In this document: piece by piece, positions 14,337 through 29,647 of the stretch
Position numbering within the stretch: the stretch's first letter is position 1
How the letters are laid out: every line of letters begins with the position of its first letter
NCBI GenBank assembly: GCA_965231035.1
Contig: OZ246409.1
Location: 61,101 to 93,100 of the forward strand
DNA: 32,000 nucleotides
Direction of reading: 5' to 3'
DNA from: an uncultured Muribaculaceae bacterium
GTDB lineage: Bacteria; Pseudomonadota; Alphaproteobacteria; Rs-D84
Notes under the pieces: model-generated
Databases searched by the model: none
The model's input: the letters and a program-made list of their open reading frames with translations, nothing else
What the model was told of the DNA's origin: nothing
Position numbers and translations under genes: made by a program

Positions 14337-15500
14337 TCAAGCATAATTACCGGCGGTAAAACCACTTGCAAAAGCAAAATGCAAATTAAAACCACCCAAG
14401 TCGCCTGCGATATCCAGCACTTCGCCAGCAAAGTACAAACCTGGACATAATTTTGATTCCATTGTTTTTGAAGAAATAAATTCAGTTGAAACACCACCAA
14501 CTGTAACTTCGGCTTTTTCAAACCCAAGTCTTTTTAATTCTTCGGGTGGTATTAAAAAATTATTAATTCTTTCTGCTATGACCTTAATTTCTGTGTCCTT
14601 AAAATCAGCAATATTTTTAGTTCCATCCGGATTACAAATCCATTTAGCAAAATTTAAAGGCAAATGCATAGAAAGCAAATTTTGTAAAGATTTTTTTCCT
14701 TCGATTTTTTTTATTTTTATCAACCAATCATAAACATCAATACGTGGTAAAAAATTTATATAAATATCTTTATTCAAATCAAATAACGAGGTCCGATAAG
14801 CCAATGGCCCACCAATTCCAAAATGTGTAAATAAAAGTGAATCTTGAATCTTTTTTTTACCAATTTTTATTTCTGAATCAACGGAAATTCCAGACAATTC
14901 AGATGAAAACAGTTTCGTTTTTAATCCTGTTAATCCGGGCTGAACAGGGATTATTTTATGTCCAAATTTCTTTGCAATTATATAACCAAAATCAGAAGTG
15001 TTCAAAGCAGGGTAAGAAACACCACCAGTTGCAATTATCACAGATTTACTTTGGTAAACATTATTTTTAGATTGAACTTCAAAATATTCGCCTGATTTTT
15101 CTATATCTGTAACGGTTGTATTTGTAAAAATATCTACACCGTTAATATCTTGTAACATTGTTGAAACAAAATCAGAACTGTTGGTTGCACAAAAGAATTG
15201 TCCAGCTGTTTTTTCAACGTATTTCAAATTATGACGCTTTGCCCAATCCAAAATATCAGTTGGTTTTAACTTTGATAAAACAGACCTAACAAAATCAGGG
15301 TTTTTTCCAAAATATCTATCTGCGGAAACTGCCAAATTTGTAAAATTGCAACGACCGCCACCAGAAACTAAAACTTTGCGGGCAGGTTTTTCACCCATAT
15401 CCAAAATTGCAACTGTGCGACCATTTGAAAGCGCAGACGATGCTGCAAAAATCCCCGCAGCACCGCCACCTATAATAATTACATCATATTTTTTAATCAT
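14337..15500 (-). CDS. NAD(P)/FAD-dependent oxidoreductase, HI0933/BaiN family
   Basis: YDVIIIGGGAAGIFAA dinucleotide-binding motif, SGGGRCNFTN and the C-terminal GLYFAGEVLDIAGDLGGFNLHFAFASG. Confidence 0.85.
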   Translation of the reverse strand: MIKKYDVIIIGGGAAGIFAASSALSNGRTVAILDMGEKPARKVLVSGGGRCNFTNLAVSADRYFGKNPDFVRSVLSKLKPTDILDWAKRHNLKYVEKTAGQFFCATNSSDFVSTMLQDINGVDIFTNTTVTDIEKSGEYFEVQSKNNVYQSKSVIIATGGVSYPALNTSDFGYIIAKKFGHKIIPVQPGLTGLKTKLFSSELSGISVDSEIKIGKKKIQDSLLFTHFGIGGPLAYRTSLFDLNKDIYINFLPRIDVYDWLIKIKKIEGKKSLQNLLSMHLPLNFAKWICNPDGTKNIADFKDTEIKVIAERINNFLIPPEELKRLGFEKAEVTVGGVSTEFISSKTMESKLCPGLYFAGEVLDIAGDLGGFNLHFAFASGFTAGNYA

Positions 15501-15521: not shown

Positions 15522-18500
15522 TTATACAGTGTCGTGACCACCACTTGAACCGCCGTCATAAGAACCATAAGATGGCCACATTGTATATCCGTCTTTACAT
15601 TGACGATTACATTTCTTTGTGGATGAATTCCAAATCATTGTTCCAGTGTCATCTTCATATCCGCTGATATCACAAATAGGGTCACATTGATTATGGTCTA
15701 AGTTGTATAACTCTCCTTGATACATACAAGAAGCAATTTCACAACCACGAGCATAGCTGCTGACTGCTGGTTCGTTCAATATACTGTATTTGTTTTTGCA
15801 CTGACCGCATGGTTTTGTATGATCATTAGTTTCAGAATACTCAGATGTATATCCTGGGTTACAAGATTTTACCTGGCATGCACCCCAAGAATTAGTAGAG
15901 CTATTCCATTCCTTGGTTCCTGAACCATTATCAATCACACAATCTTGTTCATCCGGAACGCAAGTATTAGATGATACATGATATCCATCAACACAAGTTT
16001 GGACTTTGCATGTGCTGTAAGAATTCTTAGATGTATTCCAAATCTTAGAAGCTGATTCTGCATTAGAAACACTGCAATCTATTGTATTTTCTTCACAAGA
16101 TTGTCCATTTGGATGATATCCGGATACGCAAGATTCAACTTCGCAATTGTTTCCGGATTTATACGATACAGCGTTATCACGATCGCAAGGCTGACATACC
16201 CCATTTACCATTTCATATGAGTTTGAACAAGTTGTTGAAATTAAACATATTGGGTCTGATGTATAACCACTGTTATCGTAATGATAACCACCGGGTGTCG
16301 GAATATAAGTTCCCGGGCATGACGCCAGATATACACAATAGTTTGGATAATTTTCTGTTGTGTTCTTTGGTGTTTTAACGGCACCTGTTGGTGGTGCAAT
16401 ACTTACAGTAGAGCATGTTTGATAGCAATCATTAACAGAATCATGATCTATTGGGAGCGTTTTCCCAGTGATATGATATCCGCTTGAAGTGTCACAAGTG
16501 TTCAATATAGAAATATTTCCATATGTTACCGTATTTGTATCTATGTATTTATCATTAGTTGAAAGAACTGTACAACTGTGTCCAGCAATTGAAACATACT
16601 GACCTGGGGTGCATATGATTGCACATTGGCTTTGGCTTGTTAAACCTGTACCACCATTGATGTAATCTACAGGACAGTTATAATTTCCCCCACCTATGCC
16701 TGTACCATAATAAACCAATTCGCCGGGGCAATAGTAACCAGCAGGGCATGTTATACAAGTTCCTAAGTCACCAGAATCAATTCCATCTACATAAGTCCCA
16801 GCAGGGCAATTTATAGCACATTGATCTTGACTTGATAATCCGATTCCACCATCTACATTATTAGCAGGACATTCTGTTGGAGAATTTGTATTTCCGTACA
16901 AAATAAGTGCAGACGGACAATAATTACCAGCAGTGCAAGTTGTAGCAGTTGTATCATTTGCGTTTGCAATATAAGTACCGGCAGTTGTTTGTATTTGACA
17001 CTGATTCTGATCAGTTAAACCAGTTCCACCATCTACATAATTAGTTGGGCAAGTTGTTAATCCACCTGTGCTGCCATAAGAAACCAACGTAGATGGACAG
17101 TAATTTCCAGCAGTGCAGGTTGTAGCAGTCGTAGCATTAGCAGTTGCAATATAATTACCAGCTGTTGTTTGCCATTTACATCCTGTTTGAGTAGTTACGC
17201 CAGTTCCACCATTTACATAATTAGTTGGGCAAGTTGTTAATCCACCTGTGCTGCCATAAGAAACCAACGTAGATGGACAGTAATTTCCAGCAGTGCAGGT
17301 TGTAGCAGTCGTAGCATTAGCAGTTGCAATATAATTACCAGCTGTTGTTTGCCATTTACATCCTGTTTGAGTAGTTACGCCAGTTCCACCATTTACATAA
17401 TTAGTTGGGCAAGTTGTTAATCCACCTGTGCTGCCATAAGAAACCAACGTAGATGGACAGTAATTTCCAGCAGTGCAGGTTGTAGCAGTCGTAGCATTAG
17501 CAGTTGCAATATAATTACCAGCTGTTGTTTGCCATTTACATCCTGTTTGAGTAGTTACGCCAGTTCCACCATTTACATAATTAGTTGGGCATGTAGATAA
17601 ACCAGTATTAGTAGCTGTTGAATTAGTTGCAGTTACACCTGCACAATAATTACCAGCGGTACAAGCAGAACAGGCACGACTGGTCTCGGTTGTATTATAT
17701 AAAAAGTAATTACCAGCAGAACAAGTCAAACTCCAAGGACAAGCATTAGCCCCACTACCAGTTCCAACATAGCTGGCAGCACTTGGTTTATTAGAACAGC
17801 TTGTACAGCTTTGTATTGCAGCACCATAATAATATGTTCCAGCTGCACGGTATGTTCCAGAAGAACAAGTACTGATTATATTACTGTTTGCTGTGGATAT
17901 GTATTTATCTGCAGTCAGAATAGTATTTGGAATATAACAAGCAGTATTTGCAGAAGATCCCGAAACAGAACTAGTATAATTACTTCCCAGTGTTGTACAT
18001 GCTGTAATACCTTGATCTGAAGAGCTTAGACCAAATACTCCGCCCAGACAATAATTTCCGGCAGTACATGTTGAACAGGTTGATGAATTTCCGGGTAAAT
18101 ATTGACCAGGATCACATGTTGCACTAGATTGTGTCCAATGTGCATATAGTGTTGCACCAGAAGTTTTATCCCATACTCGCGCAGATGCACCAGAAGATGT
18201 GTAATACTGGGTTCCACCACTTATCGCATCATAGTAACCTACGAATACATAATTTGTAAGTGTCGGCATAGTTGCAGTTGGCATTGCAGAATTATATGGT
18301 GCAATAACAGATGCAGTTCCCCCAGTTCCACCTTGTGCATCAAGTGTTACTAAATATGTAATTGGTGAACAAGTATCTCCTGAAATACCATATCCAGCTG
18401 CACAACTTATTACTGTGCATAAATTATTTGTAACGTTCTCGCTGAAATCCCAAGTCGCTACATCCCATTCTGTTTCATAACCAGTATAATTAGAGCAGTT

Positions 18501-20507
18501 TATATCACACTCAGTATAACCATCATTAGATGTGGTTGTACCACCTTGACATGGAATACATTCTTCAGATGTATCTCCACTGTATGATCCAACTGCGCAA
18601 TTAGAACATCCTGCCCAACCAGGTAAAGAATAAGTTCCGGGTTCGCAAGGTTCTAAATCGCCAGAATATCCATAAGTAACTAACGTAGCAGGACAGAAAT
18701 ATCCAGCAGGGCATGTTGATAAAGTTGTATCATTTGGAGTTGCAATGTAATTACCAGAAGTTGTTTGAATCTGACACTGCGATGCGGCAGTTTTACCCCC
18801 TGTTGTGTTTGCTGTATAATTGGTCGGACAAGCTGTACAACTGGTTGCTGTTCCACCAGCACTGTAAACCGCACCAGAACATTGTGAACAAGTAGCTGTT
18901 GAAGCATTATTGTTTGCAATTATATAACCAGCATTTGCAGTTACCCCGTATGTACTTGCTGGCCAAGCACTTCCAGTATACGTAACTTGTTGTGATGTTA
19001 CAGTCGCACATCCTGTTATAGTTTTAGTTGGAGCTGTATATCTGCAAGTAGTATTTGCATTATATGGACTTACAGAAGTATAAGTACCACCACTTGGGTT
19101 GACCCCAGGTAATGAATTGCATGCAATGCAAGTTGTTGCTGTTCCGCCTGTGCTGAATGTTGGACTGCTGCAGGCTGAACATGTGGCTGTGGAAGTATTA
19201 TTGTTCGCGATTATATATCCACTGTCTGCAATTACCCCGTATGTGCTTGCTGGCCATCCAGAACCAGTATACGTAACCTGTTGTGATGTTACAGTTGTGC
19301 ATCCTGTTATAGTTTTAGTTGGAGCTGTATATTTACATGCAGTGTTTGCTGAACTTCCAGTAGTTGATGTTGTATATGTACCACCACTAGGACTTACACC
19401 AGTAAGAGCACTACAGCTAGAACATGAAGTCACAGAACCACCAGCACTATATGTGCCAAGTCCACAAATACTACAAGTTGCACTTGAAGTATTATTGTTT
19501 GCAATTATATAACCAGCATTTGCGGTAACACCATAAGTACTTGCTGGCCATCCAGAACCGGTATACGTAACCTGTTGTGATGTTACGGTTGCGCATCCAG
19601 TAAGGGTCTTGGAAGGTGCTGTATATTTACATGCAGTGTTGTCGGTACTTGCTGTAGAAGTTGTTGTGTATGTTCCACCACTTGGACTTACACCGGTCAA
19701 TGAGCTACATGCTGTACAAGCTGCCACAGCTTGTGATGACGATGTTTTAAATGTTCCAGCAGAACACGCAGTCCAAACTGCATAAACAGTAACTGCTGAA
19801 GAAGTTGTTATTGAAAAACTTCCGGATGTAGCACCAGAACTGGTACTCCAACCCGATAATACGTATCCGGCCCTGTAATATGAAGTTGTTGCACCACTGT
19901 TCAAAGCACAAGAAGAACCAACATTACAAGTTGTAGCACTTGGCGCAGTTCCAGAACCACCATTCAAATTATAAGTAACTGCAACAGTAGTTGGTGTCCA
20001 TTGAGCATATAATGTTGTATCGTTTGATATCGGCCACGTAGAGAATAATGATACGCCATAACTATCAAACATCATTTCACCCAAGTATGTCTCTTCGTTG
20101 TATCCCACAAATTTATAACCATCCCTCGTTGGAATATAAACATCCAACCCTTGCATAGATTGACCATAAGAAACTTGAAAAGAACCTTGGTCCCCCCATG
20201 AGGCACCACCACCCCATCCACCTTGGTCATCAAGCGTTACAGTGTATAAAACACTTGCAGGACAAGCAGTTCCACCAGCACAGGTATAATTAGAACCAAA
20301 AACCGAGCAGGCACGGCAGGCATTTCCCGCCGCGGGTGTTGGCGCACAAGCTGTACTGGTAGAGCTTGCAGTCATATAATATCCAGATGCGCAAGAGGTA
20401 TATTTCAAATATGTGGGGCAAGTATAACCGGCAGCAAACGCATTACCGGCAAAAAACACTGTTGATAAAAATGCGAAAATACGCAGTAAATTCGGGACTT
20501 TTCTCAA
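15522..20507 (-). CDS. giant secreted Cys-rich repeat protein (1661 aa) with three Flg_new/InlB-B-type modules and multiple CxxC..G.Y repeat families
   Basis: TTG start at 20507 with GAGAGGAAGA RBS. Signal peptide MRKVPNLLRIFAFLSTVFFAGNAFA. Modules ending TLYAQWT, VYAVWT and LYAHWT. Three 98-aa repeats, at least six 60-aa repeats, and C-terminal C.V.SC..GYH modules. Confidence 0.85.
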   Translation of the reverse strand: MRKVPNLLRIFAFLSTVFFAGNAFAAGYTCPTYLKYTSCASGYYMTASSTSTACAPTPAAGNACRACSVFGSNYTCAGGTACPASVLYTVTLDDQGGWGGGASWGDQGSFQVSYGQSMQGLDVYIPTRDGYKFVGYNEETYLGEMMFDSYGVSLFSTWPISNDTTLYAQWTPTTVAVTYNLNGGSGTAPSATTCNVGSSCALNSGATTSYYRAGYVLSGWSTSSGATSGSFSITTSSAVTVYAVWTACSAGTFKTSSSQAVAACTACSSLTGVSPSGGTYTTTSTASTDNTACKYTAPSKTLTGCATVTSQQVTYTGSGWPASTYGVTANAGYIIANNNTSSATCSICGLGTYSAGGSVTSCSSCSALTGVSPSGGTYTTSTTGSSANTACKYTAPTKTITGCTTVTSQQVTYTGSGWPASTYGVIADSGYIIANNNTSTATCSACSSPTFSTGGTATTCIACNSLPGVNPSGGTYTSVSPYNANTTCRYTAPTKTITGCATVTSQQVTYTGSAWPASTYGVTANAGYIIANNNASTATCSQCSGAVYSAGGTATSCTACPTNYTANTTGGKTAASQCQIQTTSGNYIATPNDTTLSTCPAGYFCPATLVTYGYSGDLEPCEPGTYSLPGWAGCSNCAVGSYSGDTSEECIPCQGGTTTSNDGYTECDINCSNYTGYETEWDVATWDFSENVTNNLCTVISCAAGYGISGDTCSPITYLVTLDAQGGTGGTASVIAPYNSAMPTATMPTLTNYVFVGYYDAISGGTQYYTSSGASARVWDKTSGATLYAHWTQSSATCDPGQYLPGNSSTCSTCTAGNYCLGGVFGLSSSDQGITACTTLGSNYTSSVSGSSANTACYIPNTILTADKYISTANSNIISTCSSGTYRAAGTYYYGAAIQSCTSCSNKPSAASYVGTGSGANACPWSLTCSAGNYFLYNTTETSRACSACTAGNYCAGVTATNSTATNTGLSTCPTNYVNGGTGVTTQTGCKWQTTAGNYIATANATTATTCTAGNYCPSTLVSYGSTGGLTTCPTNYVNGGTGVTTQTGCKWQTTAGNYIATANATTATTCTAGNYCPSTLVSYGSTGGLTTCPTNYVNGGTGVTTQTGCKWQTTAGNYIATANATTATTCTAGNYCPSTLVSYGSTGGLTTCPTNYVDGGTGLTDQNQCQIQTTAGTYIANANDTTATTCTAGNYCPSALILYGNTNSPTECPANNVDGGIGLSSQDQCAINCPAGTYVDGIDSGDLGTCITCPAGYYCPGELVYYGTGIGGGNYNCPVDYINGGTGLTSQSQCAIICTPGQYVSIAGHSCTVLSTNDKYIDTNTVTYGNISILNTCDTSSGYHITGKTLPIDHDSVNDCYQTCSTVSIAPPTGAVKTPKNTTENYPNYCVYLASCPGTYIPTPGGYHYDNSGYTSDPICLISTTCSNSYEMVNGVCQPCDRDNAVSYKSGNNCEVESCVSGYHPNGQSCEENTIDCSVSNAESASKIWNTSKNSYSTCKVQTCVDGYHVSSNTCVPDEQDCVIDNGSGTKEWNSSTNSWGACQVKSCNPGYTSEYSETNDHTKPCGQCKNKYSILNEPAVSSYARGCEIASCMYQGELYNLDHNQCDPICDISGYEDDTGTMIWNSSTKKCNRQCKDGYTMWPSYGSYDGGSSGGHDTV
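17034..17591 (-). repeat. three perfectly identical 180-bp tandem units (60 aa each) inside the giant gene
   Basis: 17041-17220, 17221-17400 and 17401-17580 are identical base for base. Diverged copies of the same 180-nt period flank them, at least at 16861-17040. Each unit encodes TCPTNYVNGGTGVTTQTGCKWQTTAGNYIATANATTATTCTAGNYCPSTLVSYGSTGGLT. Confidence 0.95.
18828..19766 (-). repeat. three imperfect 294-bp (98-aa) tandem repeats inside the giant gene
   Basis: Protein repeats start at C267, C365 and C463 (C[SN][SA]L[TP]GV.PSGGTYT...TGC.TVTSQQVTYTGS.WPASTYGV...GYIIANNN). Recurring nucleotide strings include gcaattatataaccagcatttgc at about 18916 and 19501. Confidence 0.8.
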
Positions 20508-20530
20508 ATCTTCCTCTCTGTATAATCTGC

Positions 20531-20627: not shown

Positions 20628-20704
20628 TGGTGGGTTAGGTAGGACTCGAACCCACGACCAAAGCGTTATGAGCGCTCCGCTCTAACCACCTGAGCTACTA
20701 ACCC
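20628..20704 (-). tRNA. tRNA with CAU anticodon (elongator Met or lysidine-modified Ile2; not initiator), CCA encoded
   Basis: GGGTTAG/CTAACCC acceptor with a paired 1:72. D-arm GCTC-AGGTGGTTA-GAGC, anticodon arm GAGCG-CTCATAA-CGCTT, T-arm GTGGG-TTCGAGT-CCTAC, then ACCA. Confidence 0.9.
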
Positions 20705-20729: not shown

Positions 20730-22043
20730 TTGGCAAAGCAAGTGAAAATGTGTCAATATTACAAAATGAGTTTAATCGCACCGATTTTGAATGAATCCCA
20801 ACTGAATGCTTTTGACACAATCGAGCATACCAACAATAACATCTTGATATTGGGCCAGGCGGGAACAGGGAAATCTACTTTTGTAAACTATTTGAAAAGT
20901 GCCTCTAAGAAAAGAATCATCTGTGCATGTCCCACGGCGGTTTCTGCATTGAATGTTGGCGGGCAGACAATCCATTCACTGTTTCAAATCCAGCCACGTG
21001 ATTTTATTATGCCTGAATTTTTGAAGTTAAAGGCTAAACCCAGAAATGTAATGAATGCCGCGGATATCTTAATTATTGATGAGATTTCAATGGTTGCACC
21101 TGATTTGTTGGACGCGGTTGATATACTTGCACGCCAGGCGCGAAAAAATAATATGCCATTTGGTGGATTACAAATTGTTGCCATAGGGGATTTGTTCCAG
21201 CTGCCGCCAGTGATAACCCAAGATGCACAAAAATATTATGAACAAGAATATGGATTTTCAAATTCATACTTTTTTGACAGCAATGTTTATAAACGGTCAG
21301 ATTTTATAAAAGTAAATTTTGATTTGGTTTATCGTCAAAGCGACAAATCATTACTGGATAACCTGGTTCGACTAAGAAACAATGAAACCGATGCCCTGGA
21401 ATTTTTTAACAGTTGCAAAATTGAAGATTTATCACGCAGATCAAATGCTGTGATTATTACACCTTTTCGTGCTGTTGCAGAAAAAATAAATACAGACAGG
21501 TTGGCGCAAATAAATTCTGAACCGGTTTCCTATCGTGGTGAATTGAATGGAAATTTTCGTGAACAAGATGTTCCATCACCATTGGATTTGGTTTTAAAAG
21601 TTGGTGCTTTGGTTATGTTTACCCGAACCGTTCGTGAATATGGCGAAGATTGTTTTAATGGTCGTATGGGAATTATACAAAAATTAGAAGCAAAAGAAAT
21701 TACAGTAAAACTTTTGAATCAAAAAAATGATATTGTTAAAATCAAGCCTGAAAAATGGACCAAGATTGAATATGCCTATGATGAAAATAATAAACTGATT
21801 GAAAACGAAACTGGTTCATACAAACAGTTTCCTTTGGCATTAGGTTATGCGATGACGATACACAAGGCCCAGGGAAAAACATTAGATTCTGTGATTGTTG
21901 ATATTTCACGCGGGGCTTTTGCACATGGACAAACTTATGTTGCATTGTCGCGTACCAGAAATGCATCAGATATGCATATTCCAAATCCGCTTCGTCAAAA
22001 AGATATAATATTTGATGCCAGGGTATTGGATTTTATAGCATAA
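20730..22043 (+). CDS. pif1: Pif1-family SF1B DNA helicase
   Basis: Walker A GQAGTGKST and Walker B IIDEISMV. Pif1 signature region LLDAVDILARQARKNNMPFGGLQIVAIGDLFQLPPV. C-terminal TIHKAQGKTLDSVIV and YVALSRTR. The start is uncertain: TTG 20730, ATG 20748 or ATG 20766. Confidence 0.8.
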   Translation: MAKQVKMCQYYKMSLIAPILNESQLNAFDTIEHTNNNILILGQAGTGKSTFVNYLKSASKKRIICACPTAVSALNVGGQTIHSLFQIQPRDFIMPEFLKLKAKPRNVMNAADILIIDEISMVAPDLLDAVDILARQARKNNMPFGGLQIVAIGDLFQLPPVITQDAQKYYEQEYGFSNSYFFDSNVYKRSDFIKVNFDLVYRQSDKSLLDNLVRLRNNETDALEFFNSCKIEDLSRRSNAVIITPFRAVAEKINTDRLAQINSEPVSYRGELNGNFREQDVPSPLDLVLKVGALVMFTRTVREYGEDCFNGRMGIIQKLEAKEITVKLLNQKNDIVKIKPEKWTKIEYAYDENNKLIENETGSYKQFPLALGYAMTIHKAQGKTLDSVIVDISRGAFAHGQTYVALSRTRNASDMHIPNPLRQKDIIFDARVLDFIA

Positions 22044-22373
22044 TTATTTGCTTTTTTTACAAATAAAAATTTTACACAAACCAGGTCTGTTTTTATAAAT
22101 AGAACATTCGGCTCTTTTATCTAAATTAAAAGACAAGAAAGGACAATAAGGTCTGTCTAATTTTCCAGTACGAACTTTTTCTAATTGCTCAAATGATGTT
22201 TTTGGAATTATATGTGGACCCAGATTCCAATCATCAGATATTTCAACAAACTTTATATTTAATCCAGTAAATAGTTTCTTAGCTTTTTTGTATTCACCAG
22301 AAATCTCAAAGAATGCAGGAACTTTGCAACATTCGCCGCATCTTTGACATTCAAATGAATTTTCTTTGTTCAT
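22044..22373 (-). CDS. YkgJ-family Cys-cluster (CxxCxxCC) zinc/iron-chelating domain protein
   Basis: FECQRCGECCKV near the N-terminus plus downstream Cys residues (YCPFL, CSIY, CKIFIC). ATGA overlap with the upstream gene. Confidence 0.72.
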   Translation of the reverse strand: MNKENSFECQRCGECCKVPAFFEISGEYKKAKKLFTGLNIKFVEISDDWNLGPHIIPKTSFEQLEKVRTGKLDRPYCPFLSFNLDKRAECSIYKNRPGLCKIFICKKSK

Positions 22374-23416
22374 TTTATTTTCTTTTTATCTCGTAGATTA
22401 TAAAGCATGTTCTTATAAAATAAATTTCCGTTTTCCTCTGTGGTGTCAAAATTAAAATCACCCCCAGAAACCAGTTCGCGAATAGAAGGTAATGGACCAC
22501 CATTTATTGAATTTTTTAAACCGTTAATCAGGGCATTCCTTTCTGCTGTGAAAATTATTTTTCCATCATCTGTAAGAAGATGTTCTTCTTTTTTTGGAAT
22601 CCCGGAAGTAAAATGTTCGGCCCCTTCATCTTTCTTTGATTTTTTAACAATAAAAAAATTGCCTTTTTCTCCTGAAAAAAAACTTGGTTTAAGATTTTGA
22701 TCAATATTTTTAATATATTTATTAAACAAATTTTTGTGATCTAAAACTTCGTCCATTGCAGACATAAAAGATACTGTTGTGAATTTAGAATGTTCTAATG
22801 GGGATAATGGGGTATGAGCGATTATTAATAAGTTTTCTTGGATTTTTTTAATATCGTCTTTTGAATAACCTATCTTTGACATTTTATCGCCAATAAAATT
22901 TTCTAAATATTTTAATACGGTTGATCCATAACAATGAGTAAATATGACCAATTTTCTGACATTTTCTATTGCTTTTTCTAGGTCAATTTTTTCTGATTTT
23001 TTTCCAACAATTCTTGGTTTTATTAAAATATTATACAGATAATTTAAAAATAATGGTTCGGGCTCATTTTCCATTGTGTTTTTTATATCATGATTAAGAC
23101 ATTCTCGCAAAGTTGATATTTTCCTACGAGCTTTTTGAAAAATGTTAAGCTCATCAAATTCTGTATTTCTTGAATTGAAGTAGTATAATGTAGAATATAT
23201 ATTTACATCATTAATATCATTTTCTTTCAACAGGTAACTTAAACGCAATGCATAATTGTTTGCGGTTTTTTCAGATTCAGCTTTATTTCCTCCAAGTATA
23301 AACAGAACAGTTTTTATAACAGGTATGGAATCTACTAATTTTATTCCATAAATATTATCAATTGTTTTTGGTACACTTTGAATGATTTTAATTTCACTGG
23401 GAATATATTTATTCAT
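22370..23416 (-). CDS. hypothetical protein, 348 aa, possible alpha/beta-hydrolase-like fold with a Cys nucleophile
   Basis: Intact ORF translationally coupled on both sides by ATGA overlaps. A beta-strand-like KLVIFTHCYGS resembles a nucleophile elbow. No family recognised. Confidence 0.55.
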   Translation of the reverse strand: MNKYIPSEIKIIQSVPKTIDNIYGIKLVDSIPVIKTVLFILGGNKAESEKTANNYALRLSYLLKENDINDVNIYSTLYYFNSRNTEFDELNIFQKARRKISTLRECLNHDIKNTMENEPEPLFLNYLYNILIKPRIVGKKSEKIDLEKAIENVRKLVIFTHCYGSTVLKYLENFIGDKMSKIGYSKDDIKKIQENLLIIAHTPLSPLEHSKFTTVSFMSAMDEVLDHKNLFNKYIKNIDQNLKPSFFSGEKGNFFIVKKSKKDEGAEHFTSGIPKKEEHLLTDDGKIIFTAERNALINGLKNSINGGPLPSIRELVSGGDFNFDTTEENGNLFYKNMLYNLRDKKKIK

Positions 23417-23805: not shown

Positions 23806-24383
23806 TTTAACTCGGCATAGCTGGGACGCATATACATTGGTATAACTGGTTCAGATTTTTTTGATTCTAATTTATTTTCAATTATTGTTAATGCATCTTT
23901 TAAGTCATAAGGTTTATGCCCAACTGTTTTTGCATATTCCATTTGTTTTGTTTCAATATCATCAATAGTCATTGTGCATGGTTCAATATTATGTGCAGCA
24001 ACAAAAAAGTCACCACGTTTTGAATCAATTGCGACAAAAGCATCCATAGACCTTGCTAGATAAATTTCAAAAGCATTCACAGGAATAACAGGAATATTTA
24101 AACCAATAGAAAGTCCCTTGGCATATGCAATTCCCAGACGAATTCCAGTAAAGCTGCCAGGGCCAACAACAATACCGATTGCAGATAAACCAGAAAATTT
24201 TAAATTATTTTTGCTGATAAATTTTTCAACAGCAATCGGTAATTCAACCGATTGTTTTCCATTAGAATTTTGATCGAAACTGATATGCTCTGATACAATC
24301 TTATTTTCGATAACATTATGTAAAACTATTGAAATTCCGGGCAAAGATGTATCTATCAAAAGTATGTTTTTATTATTTGTCAT
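23793..24383 (-). CDS. tsaB: tRNA t6A37 biosynthesis protein TsaB
   Basis: ILLIDTS...VVGPGSFTGIRLGIAYAKGL is the TsaB/YeaZ signature. Overlaps rimI by 13 nt. Confidence 0.82.
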   Translation of the reverse strand: MTNNKNILLIDTSLPGISIVLHNVIENKIVSEHISFDQNSNGKQSVELPIAVEKFISKNNLKFSGLSAIGIVVGPGSFTGIRLGIAYAKGLSIGLNIPVIPVNAFEIYLARSMDAFVAIDSKRGDFFVAAHNIEPCTMTIDDIETKQMEYAKTVGHKPYDLKDALTIIENKLESKKSEPVIPMYMRPSYAELNCKC

Positions 24384-24979
24384 TTTGAAAAACTTAAATT
24401 CCTTGGCATTTGTAACAACGTATTATAAATCTTTTCTGCGAATTCGCCAGTAATTTTGCATTCAAATTTATTAAAATCATTTTTTATAAAAATAAAATAT
24501 TTTCTATCTGAAGAACTTTTACCAGTAATTGTGCCTTTAATTGTATAACCGTAAGATTCTGCACAACAACAATCTCTGAATTCAAAAAAATTACCTTTTT
24601 TGTCTTTGATATGTTCACAACATTGTTCTTCAACTGTTACAGTTATACCAGATTTTTTTAATTTTTTACATAACTCATCTTGCTCGAATGGTGCAGTATT
24701 ACCATTGGTTTTTATTCTATACCAAATATCTGTTTTATCATGTTTCAAAAGTGTGTTAAATGCAATCCAAGGAAGAATACCAGACCATTTAAAATCACCA
24801 GCTGTTATAAAATACTTACTGCTTGGATTTCTTTTGATAACAGAAATTGAGGCGTTTCCATCATGGTTTGTGGTATACACATCAGAGTCGTAATAGGATT
24901 CAGGGTATAATATAAAAGGGAATTTTAAAATTTCATTAAAAACAGAAAATTTCTTTGTAATCTTTTCAAACAGATTCAT
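24380..24979 (-). CDS. hypothetical Cys-containing protein, 199 aa, occupying the position where the Lon protease domain would be expected
   Basis: Intact ORF 17 nt downstream of the lon stop, with an ATGA overlap with tsaB. Contains EEQCCEH and RDCCCAE clusters. No similarity to the S16 peptidase domain by eye. Confidence 0.55.
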   Translation of the reverse strand: MNLFEKITKKFSVFNEILKFPFILYPESYYDSDVYTTNHDGNASISVIKRNPSSKYFITAGDFKWSGILPWIAFNTLLKHDKTDIWYRIKTNGNTAPFEQDELCKKLKKSGITVTVEEQCCEHIKDKKGNFFEFRDCCCAESYGYTIKGTITGKSSSDRKYFIFIKNDFNKFECKITGEFAEKIYNTLLQMPRNLSFSK

Positions 24980-24996: not shown

Positions 24997-26754
24997 TTAT
25001 ATTCTCACTCCGAACCCGATTTTCTTTGATAAGCCAGCAGATTTACGTAATGACAACAAAGAATCAATTTTTGTATTATCAAATTCTGTTTTGACATCTT
25101 CGCCATTGTTTTCCAACAATGTTCTGCGCAGCAATGCTGTTATTTCGCGTTGCAGTTCACGAACACCTTGTTCACTGGTATAATTGCGAATTATGTGACG
25201 AATTGATTCATCAGAAATAATAATATTTTCAGTGTTCCAACCAGTTCCTTTTGCGGCACGTTCAACCAAATGTTCGCGTGCAATTCTGATTTTTTCATCT
25301 TCGGTATAGCCTGGGATTTCAATAATTTCCATACGATCTTTTAATGCACTGGACATATTCAAGCTGTTTGCTGTTGCAATAAACAAAATATTAGACAGGT
25401 CAAAGTCAACTTCCAAATAATGATCGCGGAAATTCTTGTTCTGTTCTGGATCCAATATTTCCAACAAAGCAGATTCAGGATCACCACGATGGTCGCGACC
25501 AATTTTATCAATTTCGTCCAAAACAATTACAGGGTTGTCAGATTTGCAACGTTTTAAAGCGTCCATTATTCGACCAGGTTGTGAGCCGATGTATGTTTTG
25601 CGGTGTCCACGAAAGTGTGCTTCGTCTGAAATACCACCTAAAGAAATTCTTTGATATTTACGTCCTAATGCACTGGCAATAGATTTGCCCAGTGAAGTTT
25701 TTCCAACACCTGGTGCACCAACAAAACACAAAATACTGCCAGCATTAGTATTAGTTTTACGCATAACAGCAATGTGTTCCAAAATTCTTTCTTTGACAGA
25801 TTGCATACCTGTATGTTCAGAATCCAAAACATCCTTGGCCAGGTTTAAATCAATTTTACCTTTGTCTGATTTTCCCCAAGGCATTGATAACAATTCATCT
25901 AAATAAGTTTTTATTAATCCGCCTTCGTTTGACATAGGCGAAACACCACGCATACGGCGTAATTCTGACATCGCTTTATCTTTGGCATCAGAATGCATAT
26001 TTGATTTTTCAATACGAATACGAAGATTTTCTGAATCCATTTCTTCGGAATCTTCACCCATTTCTTTTTGAATTGCGCGAAGTTTTTCCTGTAAAATAGC
26101 ATCCCTGCGGCCACCTTCCAGTTGTTGATGTATACGGCGATTTATTGAATCTTCGATTTTTGCAGTTTCCAGAATCAAATTTACCTGTTCCAAAAGCATC
26201 ATTAATTTATCGCGCCAACTAGTCGCGGATAAAATCTTAACAGCAACCTCGGTATCCAAATTTGCCATCTGAATTACAGAATCAACAAAAGCAGGTAATG
26301 GGTAATTCTGCATAACTGCACGTAATTTATCCATTTTAAACTTTTTAACAATAGATAAATCTTGCATATTTTCTGCAATTTTATCACGCAATGCGAATGT
26401 CTGATCGAATTCAGAATCATTCAAGAGTTCAATAGGGTCAGCAAGACCCATAAATATTCCCTTTTCAACAGATATATCAGAAATATTGACAGCACCGGTG
26501 GTCTTAATAATTGAATGAACGGCACCATCAGGCATGCGCAAAACCTGGACAACATCACCCAATGTTCCAATATTAAAAATGTCATCTGGGTTTGTTGGAT
26601 AATTCCAAATATGCTGGGCAGCCAAAATTATTTTTTGATTTGCGGTCATTGCAGCCTCGACACAGGCAATCGACATTGGATTATCAATATAGATTGGCAC
26701 TGTCAGTCCGGGGTGAACAACCAAATCGCGAAGAGGTAAAATATATTCTTTCAT
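24997..26754 (-). CDS. lon: Lon-like AAA+ ATPase: Lon N-domain and AAA+ module, no S16 protease domain
   Basis: N-terminus YILPLRDLVVHPGLTVPIYI. Walker A GAPGVGKTS, Walker B VIVLDEIDK, sensor-1 FIATAN, DRMEIIEIPGYT and sensor-2 GVRELQR. Ends at residue 585 (..KKIGFGVRI-stop), where the protease domain normally begins. Confidence 0.85.
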   Translation of the reverse strand: MKEYILPLRDLVVHPGLTVPIYIDNPMSIACVEAAMTANQKIILAAQHIWNYPTNPDDIFNIGTLGDVVQVLRMPDGAVHSIIKTTGAVNISDISVEKGIFMGLADPIELLNDSEFDQTFALRDKIAENMQDLSIVKKFKMDKLRAVMQNYPLPAFVDSVIQMANLDTEVAVKILSATSWRDKLMMLLEQVNLILETAKIEDSINRRIHQQLEGGRRDAILQEKLRAIQKEMGEDSEEMDSENLRIRIEKSNMHSDAKDKAMSELRRMRGVSPMSNEGGLIKTYLDELLSMPWGKSDKGKIDLNLAKDVLDSEHTGMQSVKERILEHIAVMRKTNTNAGSILCFVGAPGVGKTSLGKSIASALGRKYQRISLGGISDEAHFRGHRKTYIGSQPGRIMDALKRCKSDNPVIVLDEIDKIGRDHRGDPESALLEILDPEQNKNFRDHYLEVDFDLSNILFIATANSLNMSSALKDRMEIIEIPGYTEDEKIRIAREHLVERAAKGTGWNTENIIISDESIRHIIRNYTSEQGVRELQREITALLRRTLLENNGEDVKTEFDNTKIDSLLSLRKSAGLSKKIGFGVRI

Positions 26755-26824: not shown

Positions 26825-27061
26825 TTAACGACGGTGTCCGCCATTGTAACCATTATATTGTGCACTATTGCTTGATTTTTTTGAAAGATAACGTGCAGCA
26901 ATCAAAATCAGCCATTCTAATGATAAAACAGCCAAAGCAAGTAATTTTAAATCCATACTGTCACTCATCCAACCCAAAATATAAACCAATTGTCCAACAA
27001 ATGAAATATACAAGATGCCGAATACGCCTGTGAAAAATATTTTTTTGATTTTTCCGAACAT
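26825..27061 (-). CDS. small membrane protein (78 aa, two TM helices)
   Basis: ATG 27061 with AAGGA RBS 7 nt upstream. FFTGVFGILYISFVGQLVYILGW and LLALAVLSLEWLILIAA. The track's longer N-terminus runs into the tmRNA gene and is rejected. Confidence 0.5.
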   Translation of the reverse strand: MFGKIKKIFFTGVFGILYISFVGQLVYILGWMSDSMDLKLLALAVLSLEWLILIAARYLSKKSSNSAQYNGYNGGHRR

Positions 27062-27083
27062 TTTTGTGTCCTTATTGTTAATT

Positions 27084-27311
27084 AAAAATTGCCCATCTTC
27101 TGGTGCCAGGTGATGGGCGACCCCGCAAAAGCTTAAGACACCACCAACAATTGTCGGCATTGTGTCAAACGCCAATTAGGCAGCTAATGCAACGCGAACG
27201 TTGTCGTTCGCAGCGATATTTTCGCCATTCAGTTTTTAACGGTTTTTTACGACACCATGTCGGATTCACTCGATTTGCTTTTATTTCGTCTGTCGAAACT
27301 ATGTCAGCCCC
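27084..27311 (-). ncRNA. ssrA: tmRNA coding piece (5' acceptor strand GGGGCUG with the G3:U pair, UUCGAC element, tag ORF, 3' hairpin)
   Basis: GGGGCTG pairs with CAGCTCC to give the G:U alanine identity pair. The tag ORF lies about 100 nt downstream. The 3' hairpin is GCCCATC..GATGGGC. Confidence 0.8.
27176..27211 (-). other. tmRNA tag reading frame encoding ANDNVRVALAA-stop
   Basis: Direct translation of the minus strand. An AND start and ALAA-TAA end match the canonical proteolysis-tag pattern. An additional in-frame GCT (27212-27214) could be the resume codon instead. Confidence 0.85.
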
Positions 27312-27315
27312 GTAA

Positions 27316-28452
<1,137 letters not shown>

Positions 28453-29020: not shown

Positions 29021-29647
29021 ATGTCAGTACCAAAATTAAAAGGTTCACAGACTGAAAAAAATCTGTTGATTGCTTTTGCCGGTGAATCACAGGCACGTAA
29101 TCGTTATGGCTTTTTTGCATCTGCTGCGACCAAAGAAGGTTTCGAGGCTATTGGAAAAATATTTACAGAAACCGCAGAACAAGAACGCGAACACGCTTCA
29201 CGTTTGTTTAAGTTCCTGGAAGGTGGCGATATTGAAATCACAGCTTCATTCCCAGCAGGCAAGGTTGGAACAACTTTGGAAAACCTGAAAGCAGCTGCAT
29301 TCGGTGAAAATTATGAAAATACAGAAATGTACCCAAAATTTGCAGAAATTGCAGCCAAAGAAGGTTTTTTAGCAATTGCTGATGTATTGAAACATATTGG
29401 TTATGCAGAACGTTATCATGAATCACGCTATCGTGCTTTGATTGATGCAATTGAAAAAGGCACTTTGTTCAAACAAGATAAAATTGTTATGTGGCGTTGC
29501 ACAAATTGTGGTAATTGGGAAATTGGTAAAGAAGCACCAAAAGTTTGCCCAGCTTGCTTACATCCCCAAGGTTATTTTATCAGTGAAGGTACAACTTCTA
29601 GATGTAATACCAAGGAAGGTTTTTGCGAGTACGCAGAAAGAGATTAA
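29021..29647 (+). CDS. rbr: rubrerythrin
   Basis: TEKNLLIAFAGESQARNRY, EQEREHA and ERYHESRY di-iron four-helix-bundle motifs. C-terminal rubredoxin-like WRCTNCG...CPAC. AAAGGAGA RBS upstream. Extra 21-aa C-terminal tail containing 2 Cys. Confidence 0.9.
   Translation: MSVPKLKGSQTEKNLLIAFAGESQARNRYGFFASAATKEGFEAIGKIFTETAEQEREHASRLFKFLEGGDIEITASFPAGKVGTTLENLKAAAFGENYENTEMYPKFAEIAAKEGFLAIADVLKHIGYAERYHESRYRALIDAIEKGTLFKQDKIVMWRCTNCGNWEIGKEAPKVCPACLHPQGYFISEGTTSRCNTKEGFCEYAERD

Follow-up and report, generated by a model that had tools for sequence, protein, structure and literature searches.

A giant, predicted exported cysteine-rich protein with conserved ends and a reshuffled modular middle in an Rs-D84 alphaproteobacterium

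Results

A giant modular protein with a predicted export leader

We have analysed a 32,000-nucleotide (nt) stretch of DNA, called the window in the following (contig OZ246409.1 of assembly GCA_965231035.1, positions 61,101–93,100 of the forward strand), and in particular the giant open reading frame (ORF) at its positions 15522–20507. The sequence indicates that this ORF encodes a genuine exported protein of 1661 amino acids (aa), the export being predicted from the leader. Its conserved ends enclose a middle part built from Flg_new (InlB B-repeat) modules and from cysteine-rich repeats that resemble those of tumour necrosis factor receptors (TNFR) and ephrin receptors. The initial annotation, made from the sequence alone, could not place this architecture in any described family; actually, the protein belongs to a large, uncharacterised and lineage-specific family with at least 399 homologues among the matches listed. 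According to the most plausible reading, to which we assign a probability of roughly 0.6, it is a type-A member of a giant modular family and would form an exported, disulfide-laddered rod, an adhesin or spacer directed at the surface of a host or partner.

The TTG start is backed by the N-terminus common to the orthologues, and a Shine–Dalgarno-like GAGAGGAAG lies just upstream of it, so that the ORF, the start codon and the good ribosome-binding site reported initially are all confirmed, and the signal peptide is supported. The leader consists of MRKVPNLLR, the hydrophobic stretch IFAFLSTVFFAG and NAFA, after which the mature chain should begin with AGY; its n, h, and c regions and its AxA site are those expected of a signal-peptidase-I substrate. 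This call is a rule-based reading combined with the family-wide conservation of the leader. In addition, hydrophobic 19-mer windows are confined to aa 3–29 of the whole protein.

The chain is dominated by a few residues (T 16%, S 12%, G 11%, A 9%, Y 7%, and N 7%), and T, S, G, and A together make up 49% of it. Charged residues (D, E, K, and R) number 1–5 per 100 aa across aa 201–600 and 801–1200, in agreement with the earlier remark that the central part is almost uncharged. The mature protein comes to ~167.5 kDa with a pI of 4.4. There are 110 cysteines (6.6%), an even count, and CxxC motifs are enriched (16 observed vs 7.1 ± 2.6 expected); N-x-S/T sequons are not (28 observed vs 30.7 expected). 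Taken with the invariant Cys columns described below, the even count and the CxxC enrichment suggest indirectly that the cysteines of the repeats may be paired in disulfides.

An anchor or a sorting domain had not been recognised initially, and for the known types this stands. LPXTG, RTX (repeats-in-toxin)/GGxGxD and N-terminal lipobox motifs are absent from the giant protein, as are a second hydrophobic segment, a C-terminal transmembrane segment, a CRGKA tail, and a glycosylphosphatidylinositol (GPI) signal, and the C-terminus is a hydrophilic G/S tail. Models of barrels, of the C-terminal domain used in type IX secretion, and of sorting signals gave no Pfam or NCBIfam match, relaxed scans of both termini included. 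What had been overlooked are the two conserved ends, i.e., an N-terminal Cys module and a 225-aa C-terminal domain.

Conserved ends of the protein family

The module behind the leader spans ~60 aa with the pattern AGY[TS]CPxYKKYTSCxxGYYM...GNACRPCS...YTCAGGT. Most homologues begin with leader and module (aa 1–90 are matched by 113 of 120), and the module occurs also in paralogues with other C-termini. When the window N-terminus was compared with 17 homologous N-termini (alignment A1), the identity was 42–68%, with Y28, C30, Y36, C39, G42, N62, C64, and C67 invariant.

The C-terminal domain shows 44–58% identity in alignment A3, where all its 22 cysteines are invariant. A profile search with it has yielded 753 matches among 1.84 billion representatives of 50%-identity clusters, 276 of them at E<1e-30. 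The proteins that carry this domain reach 4444 aa, and the domain is nearly always at the extreme C-terminus: 124 of the 145 retrieved family sequences stop exactly at the invariant terminal Trp (...G..xW). The window protein runs 17 aa (PSYGSYDGGSSGGHDTV) beyond this Trp, and similar WPSY... tails are present just in P0150 and P0153.

The AlphaFold2 (AF2) model of aa 1396–1661 consists of all-beta hairpins, with a mean predicted local distance difference test score (pLDDT) of 84 and values above 90 for about aa 1455–1635; the 17-aa tail is disordered in it (pLDDT near or below 50). The best fold match of the domain in the Protein Data Bank (PDB) is Plasmodium Pvs25 (1z1y), which is weak (probability 0.38; template modelling (TM) score 0.12–0.14), and a fold search against viruses returned only weak, uninformative matches to Cys-rich proteins of giant viruses. 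No Pfam, NCBIfam or PDB-sequence relative of the domain appeared in the scans and searches that we ran. The description that suits the domain best is that of a new array, specific to the lineage, of disulfide modules resembling epidermal growth factor (EGF) domains. An outer-membrane beta-signal was another possible reading of the terminal Trp, which we discarded because the domain is confidently modelled as disulfide hairpins and not as a barrel.

Module layout and domain identity

The layout of the protein is given in Table 1. The repeats noticed initially, namely a 98-aa unit present three times, a 60-aa unit present at least six times and a C-terminal C.V.SC module, have all been located. 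In total there are ~7 units of the 60-aa type, five in tandem and degenerate copies near aa 1278 and 560. The first two 98-aa units share 71% identity at DNA level, and the C.V.SC..GY modules form an array at the C-terminal end. In many homologues the module order of the supermodule (aa 542–714) is collinear with that of the window protein.

Table 1 Features of the giant gene and its immediate neighbours, in window coordinates
Feature	Position	Strand	Remarks
tRNA-Met (CAT)	20628..20704	minus	ARAGORN and Rfam; ~120 nt upstream of the giant gene, same strand
Shine–Dalgarno-like GAGAGGAAG	20510..20518	minus	3–11 nt before TTG; upstream sequence read
Giant-protein ORF	15522..20507	minus	1661 aa, TTG start
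Sec-type signal peptide, aa 1–25	20433..20507	minus	Predicted cleavage AFA/AG; sole hydrophobic segment; AxA rule; family conservation
Conserved N-terminal Cys module, aa 26–87	20247..20432	minus	113/120 homologues match aa 1–90
Flg_new / InlB B-repeat modules 1 and 2, aa 88–247	19767..20246	minus	PF09479 25.5 and 32.7 bits singly
Three 98-aa units, aa 248–541	18885..19766	minus	6 Cys each; CxxC ephrin-like hairpin opens each unit
Conserved supermodule, aa 542–714	18366..18884	minus	60-aa-type unit, ephrin-receptor-like cysteine-rich domain (aa 621–670), W..W/C.V.SC..GY module
Flg_new module 3, aa 715–795	18123..18365	minus	Pfam 28.1 bits; fold match InlB B-repeat 2y5p
Irregular Cys-rich repeats (C.AGNYC, CxxC), aa 796–972	17592..18122	minus	Sequence read
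Five tandem 60-aa units, aa 973–1272	16692..17591	minus	Tandem Repeats Finder and pairwise identities
Degenerate 60-aa unit and poorly conserved linker, aa 1273–1420	16248..16691	minus	Only 12 homologues match
Conserved C-terminal domain, aa 1421–1644	15576..16247	minus	Tandem EGF-like hairpin modules, 22 invariant Cys, ends ...C.R.C..GYTMW
17-aa Gly/Ser-rich tail PSYGSYDGGSSGGHDTV	15525..15575	minus	Past usual terminal Trp; stop codon 15522–15524
HI0933-like flavoprotein gene	14337..15500	minus	Pfam; starts 21 nt past the stop of the giant gene

The three Flg_new modules recognised at first reading are supported by profile scans of the whole protein, with 31.6 bits for PF09479 over three stretches (cutoff 27) and 29.5 bits for TIGR02543 (cutoff 20.95), which are its sole Pfam and NCBIfam matches. 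The fold of module 3 also matches the InlB B-repeat (2y5p) in Foldseek, with a probability of 1.0, a TM-score of 0.73–0.75 and a root-mean-square deviation of 3.5 A over 79 aa.

The cysteine repeats had been compared with furin, ephrin-receptor and protist surface-protein repeats, and of these it is the ephrin-receptor type, with the related TNFR type, that the scans and folds bear out. PF07699 (Ephrin_rec_like) finds nothing at E≤1 on the whole protein; on aa 545–715 it gives E=8e-4 and 19.5 bits, under the cutoff of 23.1 bits. Four paralogues exceed this cutoff (P0059 49.5, P0066 39.6, P0100 26.7, and P0117 25.6 bits), and their scoring regions align to window aa 611–675 and to the CxxC junctions of the 98-aa units, the latter aligning with parts of P0117, P0066, and P0059. 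PF23091 (TNFR_ELAPOR1) matches the segment aa 1200–1440 weakly (E=0.05). The protist side of the proposal did not hold, as none of the 10 segments scanned matched a Giardia variant-specific surface protein (VSP) or Paramecium antigen Pfam model at E≤10. Scans of both termini and the repeat units with NCBIfam at E≤10 gave nothing relevant, and a PDB sequence search with the whole protein gave only a chance match (E=0.059).

For aa 540–800, the AF2 model reaches a mean pLDDT of 93.5 and a predicted TM-score of 0.76. Its input was confined to 27 collinear homologues, a MAFFT alignment of 110 fragments (aa 444–800) having been rejected with 47 of the 110 out of register. In Foldseek searches against the PDB, this model matches ELAPOR1 (9vqm; E=6e-4, probability 1.0), the Chlamydomonas mastigoneme protein Mst1 (probability 0.9; TM-score 0.2–0.26), 4-1BB (0.72–0.85) and the EphB2 ectodomain (0.69), with further matches to the cysteine-rich domain (CRD) of EphA2, to RANK, and to TNFR1; the sequence identity to the matched receptors is 12–22%. 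The low global TM-scores of the CRD matches (~0.2) arise because the model is an elongated multi-domain piece, and the likeness therefore holds at the level of domain type. Overall, judged from sequence profiles and predicted folds, the cysteine repeats should be of TNFR/ephrin-receptor-like type.

A lineage-specific family with a reshuffled middle

Most of the homologues are 1800–2900 aa long, and in automatic annotation they carry the names 'InlB B-repeat-containing protein' or 'hypothetical'. Each GTDB species was represented by one genome in a scan with the conserved N-terminus, for which we used the 6-sequence alignment A2 since the 18-sequence alignment A1 was too divergent for this purpose. 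The scan found 88 relatives, 87 of them in metagenome-assembled genomes (MAGs) labelled Candidatus Enterousia, uncultured Alphaproteobacteria or Proteobacteria (in some cases just 'bacterium'), or 'Rickettsiales bacterium'; the single exception is a MAG labelled Muribaculaceae. Nearly all relatives come from animal guts (chicken, human, mouse, deer, sheep, rabbit, and termite). One is a genome of 958,618 bp whose isolate name marks a circular assembly.

Type-A proteins (n=41) contain 0–12 Flg_new modules, 0–4 units of the 98-aa type, 0–16 of the 60-aa type, and 0–6 ephrin-like modules. Positional orthologues thus keep their ends conserved and have their middle reshuffled in module type, number, and order.

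Of the paralogue encoded at the second conserved locus (type B; see below), the window organism's own copy is very probably P0002 (2416 aa). The longest contig listed is of the same length, 848,746 bp, for P0002 and for P0125, a variant of the window protein, and P0125 lies on a JGI contig of this length. The identity of P0002 to the window protein is 86% for Flg_new module 3 (64% for the best match in any other homologue), 73% for aa 795–960 (aa 554–718 of P0002; 40% for the best other homologue), and 68% for aa 545–715 (52%), and at DNA level it reaches 82% over 651 nt. For comparison, the conserved C-terminal domain and its closest homologues have ~62% identity. Since modules of the window protein are closer to P0002 than to the orthologues, the comparison suggests module exchange or duplication within the genome between these two paralogues.

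Two conserved loci

As was noticed initially, the giant gene lies between a flavoprotein gene and a tRNA gene (Table 1). The order PIF1-like helicase, tRNA-Met, giant gene, HI0933 flavoprotein makes up a type-A locus conserved across species. By tblastn, both protein-coding neighbours flank the giant gene in L002, L012, L029, L037, L040, L043, L052, L053, and L059, and one of the two flanks a leader-bearing giant gene in ~10 further loci; the HI0933 neighbour is syntenic in at least 11 loci. All 8 syntenic loci tested have a tRNA-Met gene ~120 nt before the giant gene and on its strand, and the Lon and PIF1 proteins of the window are 69–76% identical to those of related loci. A promoter-like site precedes tRNA-Met at 20748–20721, and no terminator-like site is seen between tRNA-Met and the giant ORF; transcription from the tRNA-Met promoter may run on into the giant gene.

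In at least 25 loci, a leader-bearing giant gene is found in a second arrangement, i.e., ruvB, ybgC, tolQ, tolR, a 239-aa ORF, the giant gene, and secA, where it occupies the place at which tolB-pal normally follows tolA. The giant proteins encoded here have the same leader and other conserved C-termini, e.g., ...TYSV[HY]DDSM or variants. In L001 (1–20000), a further relative of 851 aa with no Pfam match comes after the second-locus giant gene. In the genome of the window, the type-A gene, the type-B paralogue, and the adjacent 851-aa relative occupy ~1.7% of an 849-kb contig. As tolQ and tolR are present, the lineage is probably diderm.

Discussion

Favoured function

Candidatus Enterousia and other members of Rs-D84 occur widely in the guts of humans and animals. 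Their glycolysis is incomplete, and they lack the tricarboxylic acid (TCA) cycle, a respiratory chain, and the greater part of biosynthesis, so that they have to rely on another cell; to our knowledge, how they attach, and to what, has not been described. The giant family is the leading candidate for attachment of the Enterousia type, given its fixed locus, its predicted export, and the adhesin pattern of conserved ends and variable stalk. It also represents an unusually extensive bacterial use of disulfide domains of the TNFR/ephrin-receptor type, and the domain boundaries and confident models obtained here make expression and binding experiments possible.

In the favoured reading, the chain would be exported by the Sec route and then fold oxidatively into a long, stiff, and protease-resistant disulfide-laddered rod on or outside the cell. 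Since dozens of CRD-type modules would be too long for the periplasm, the rod should lie outside the cell. It would serve as an adhesin or spacer attaching a metabolically dependent bacterium to the surface of a host or partner. The two conserved ends would carry out the tasks that stay constant, one attaching the protein to the envelope or taking part in its handling and the other binding a ligand, and stalk length and antigenicity could vary by unequal recombination in the tandem units and by module exchange with P0002. The surface or host-interaction role thought plausible in the initial annotation remains the most plausible one.

Several points weigh against this reading. Neither the protein scans nor the neighbouring genes in the window, which are all housekeeping genes, have turned up an anchor or a secretion signal of a known kind or a gene for dedicated secretion, and with a probably diderm lineage the surface exposure is therefore left unexplained. 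A ligand-binding domain of known specificity is absent from the giant protein. An anaerobic habitat, to which a rubrerythrin gene points, makes extensive oxidative folding of a protein with 110 cysteines non-trivial. Moreover, seven strain assemblies vary only in repeat number, and so rapid antigenic variation within the species is not demonstrated.

Comparison with known systems

The domain types themselves, Flg_new and Ephrin_rec_like/TNFR-like CRDs, are already known, as are giant repeat adhesins as a kind of protein. What is new is that a bacterial protein combines disulfide CRDs in this way and on this scale, that the family has an N-terminal module and a Trp-ended C-terminal domain of its own, and that a gut lineage with reduced genomes keeps such genes at two fixed loci. 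The literature that we searched on surface or cysteine-rich proteins of Rs-D84/Enterousia, on bacterial GCC2_GCC3, and on giant Cys-rich proteins of episymbionts does not describe the family.

With InlB B-repeat proteins such as Listeria InlB (2y5p), the window protein shares the secreted multi-domain organisation and the three Flg_new modules that pass or approach the cutoff. However, Flg_new makes up only ~15% of its chain, which has no leucine-rich repeats, GW modules or LPXTG and consists mostly of disulfide-rich CRDs that are absent from Listeria internalins. The likeness to Ephrin_rec_like (PF07699, formerly GCC2_GCC3) and TNFR CRDs lies in the C..C..G.Y hairpin repeats, in the paralogues that exceed the cutoff, and in the AF2 match. 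On the other hand, the window protein itself stays under the cutoff, comes from a bacterium, lacks transmembrane and kinase parts, and arrays its CRDs by dozens, mixed with lineage-specific 60-aa and 98-aa units.

Giardia VSPs and ciliate immobilisation antigens are secreted coat proteins and, like the giant protein, are rich in Cys, CxxC and T/S and encoded by variable gene families, but they number hundreds per genome as opposed to a few paralogues at a fixed syntenic locus here, and the giant protein has neither a match to their Pfam models nor a transmembrane segment or CRGKA tail. The LapA/SiiE RTX adhesins and trimeric autotransporters also combine conserved ends with a repeat stalk that varies in length through changing tandem number. 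They differ in that the giant protein has a Sec leader instead of a C-terminal type I secretion signal, and lacks RTX repeats, bacterial Ig-like domains, and a beta-barrel; the stalk of LapA/SiiE-type adhesins is based on Ca2+ and Ig-like domains, whereas a disulfide-based stalk is predicted here. Plasmodium Pvs25/P25 (1z1y), the weak best fold match of the C-terminal domain, shares compact tandem EGF-like disulfide modules with it, although the Cys pattern differs and the giant protein has no GPI signal.

Chlamydomonas Mst1 (8wa2, 8tx1, 9b4h) is another giant protein with Eph-CRD-like domains. Its CRDs resemble the CRD of Eph receptors, and its disulfide ladder, with a spacing of ~11 A, has been proposed to make the extracellular filament robust (PMC10602792). 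A comparable ladder, giving a stiff rod, is proposed for the giant protein. Mst1 differs from it by nine Ig-like domains, a hydroxyproline-rich polyproline helix, and polymerisation, none of which is seen in the giant protein.

Alternative functions

The likeness to Mst1 leads to the alternative that survives best, even if we consider it unlikely: the protein could be a structural coat or filament and not an adhesin, which would pack or polymerise, as Mst1 does, into a hair-like fibre or a protective layer at the surface and shield a fragile cell of reduced genome from proteases, bile, phage, or immune factors. The Foldseek matches to filament subunits that form a disulfide-ladder polymer fit this proposal, as do the extremely T/S/G/A-rich central region of low charge, the position straight behind a tRNA gene without terminator, which is compatible with high expression, and the presence of the gene at a core locus in essentially every genome of the lineage. 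However, the TM-scores place the likeness to Mst1 at the level of individual CRDs, there is no polymerisation motif or Mst1-like polyproline region in the protein, and the sequons are not enriched. In addition, the differing module content of orthologues is hard to fit into a precisely packed lattice.

We regard as rather doubtful a broader proposal, in which Rs-D84/Enterousia bacteria would devote two ancestral core loci, one behind tRNA-Met and the other at the tolB-pal place after tolQRA, to giant disulfide-laddered proteins of TNFR/ephrin-receptor-like domains. These proteins would constitute a new kind of bacterial surface apparatus, with an N-terminal handling module and a Trp-ended C-terminal domain of its own and with export that uses no known secretion or anchoring signal. 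Such an apparatus would hold the cell to its host or partner cell or, by mimicry, interact with ligands of host receptors.

Quite improbable is a host-mimicking decoy or ligand trap, whose CRDs would bind ligands of the TNF family, ephrins or growth-factor-like ligands of a host or protist. The fold matches to 4-1BB, RANK, TNFR1, the EphA2/B2 CRD, and ELAPOR1, and the origin of almost all relatives from gut MAGs of animals (mammals, birds, and termites) would agree with such a role; but the low identity to the receptors indicates a generic disulfide scaffold, and variable module content speaks against one conserved ligand. Moreover, the strain of the window occurs also in metagenomes of unassigned habitat from the Joint Genome Institute (JGI) and ENA.

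Instead, a rod acting as an adhesin or spacer is preferred here, and the following two sections deal with whether the gene is native and its ORF real.

Native origin of the gene

The giant gene is GC-richer than its flanks, as stated initially, with a GC content of 0.407 vs 0.27–0.39 in most neighbours (Obg 0.414). A lateral origin, for which the initial annotation proposed a test, does not follow from this. The whole excess is carried by second codon positions (GC2 0.62 vs ~0.35) and arises because of the T/S/A/G/C-rich amino-acid composition, and at third positions the GC content (GC3) of 0.21 is at the low end of the neighbours' range, with similar synonymous codon choice. Native GC3 and conserved synteny therefore mark an ancestral core gene, neither an island nor a recent import. 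PF07699-type repeats are mostly eukaryotic, and the gene adjoins tRNA-Met; nevertheless, a recent lateral import from a eukaryote (protist or host) beside this tRNA gene is effectively refuted by the codon usage, by the order tRNA-Met, giant gene, HI0933, which many species of this lineage have in common, by hundreds of bacterial homologues, and by bacterial Flg_new domains integral to the architecture.

On this sequence evidence, we assign the gene as native to an alphaproteobacterium of the Rs-D84 / Candidatus Enterousia type with a genome of less than 1 Mb. Rs-D84 genomes are below 1 Mb, with incomplete glycolysis and without the TCA cycle, a respiratory chain, and standard nutrient transporters, and these bacteria have been proposed to be partner-dependent obligate symbionts or parasites (PMC12306168); that paper does not describe giant Cys-rich proteins.

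Tandem array and assembly comparison

Units 1–3 of the 60-aa type (17052–17591) are 100% identical at DNA level over 540 nt, and Tandem Repeats Finder reports a period of 180 nt with 3.8 copies and 95% matches. Of the identical units, the window holds three, one other assembly of the same strain two, and three assemblies one; a further assembly breaks inside the array into the partial genes HNY25237/HNY25238. A JGI contig is 99.6–99.9% identical to the window over 8.7 kb and short by exactly 180 nt. The window protein itself is present in the public NCBI collection, on a contig of 716,531 bp, and barring gene-caller starts and the number of identical units, six other assemblies have the same protein residue for residue. 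The repeat number is either polymorphic or collapsed in short-read assemblies, and the count in the window is a minimum estimate.

A chimera or collapsed repeat had been named initially as what would speak against the protein. Although a perfect 540-bp tandem repeat is prone to mis-assembly and its copy number does differ, an ORF that is not real as given is, like the eukaryotic import, essentially excluded: 7 independent assemblies agree fully outside the array, those that span it all preserve the reading frame, the module order is collinear with that of homologues, and the doubt is limited to copy number.

Other features of the window

A homologue of Lon (585 aa; 24997–26754, minus strand) has the LON substrate-binding, AAA, and lid domains but shows no Lon protease domain in the Pfam scan, and the following ORF (199 aa; 24380–24979, minus) has no Pfam match. 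The 585-aa form is conserved at full length in related loci, and so the gene could be split or encode a Lon-like ATPase without protease. An ORF of 348 aa (22370–23416, minus), also without Pfam match, adjoins the PIF1 helicase gene and the gene of a CxxCxxCC protein, and has counterparts with 29–38% identity at the same syntenic position in at least 11 related loci.

The rubrerythrin gene lies at 29021–29647 on the plus strand and fits an anaerobic lifestyle. Rfam detects a permuted two-piece transfer-messenger RNA (tmRNA) of the alphaproteobacterial type (RF01849, 146.9 bits) at 27088–27440 on the minus strand, which ARAGORN missed. It overlaps a spurious-looking ORF (26825–27175) and the 5' end of the listed Obg ORF (27322..), whose true start is probably near 27460, because the GTP1_OBG domain of Pfam begins at residue 48.

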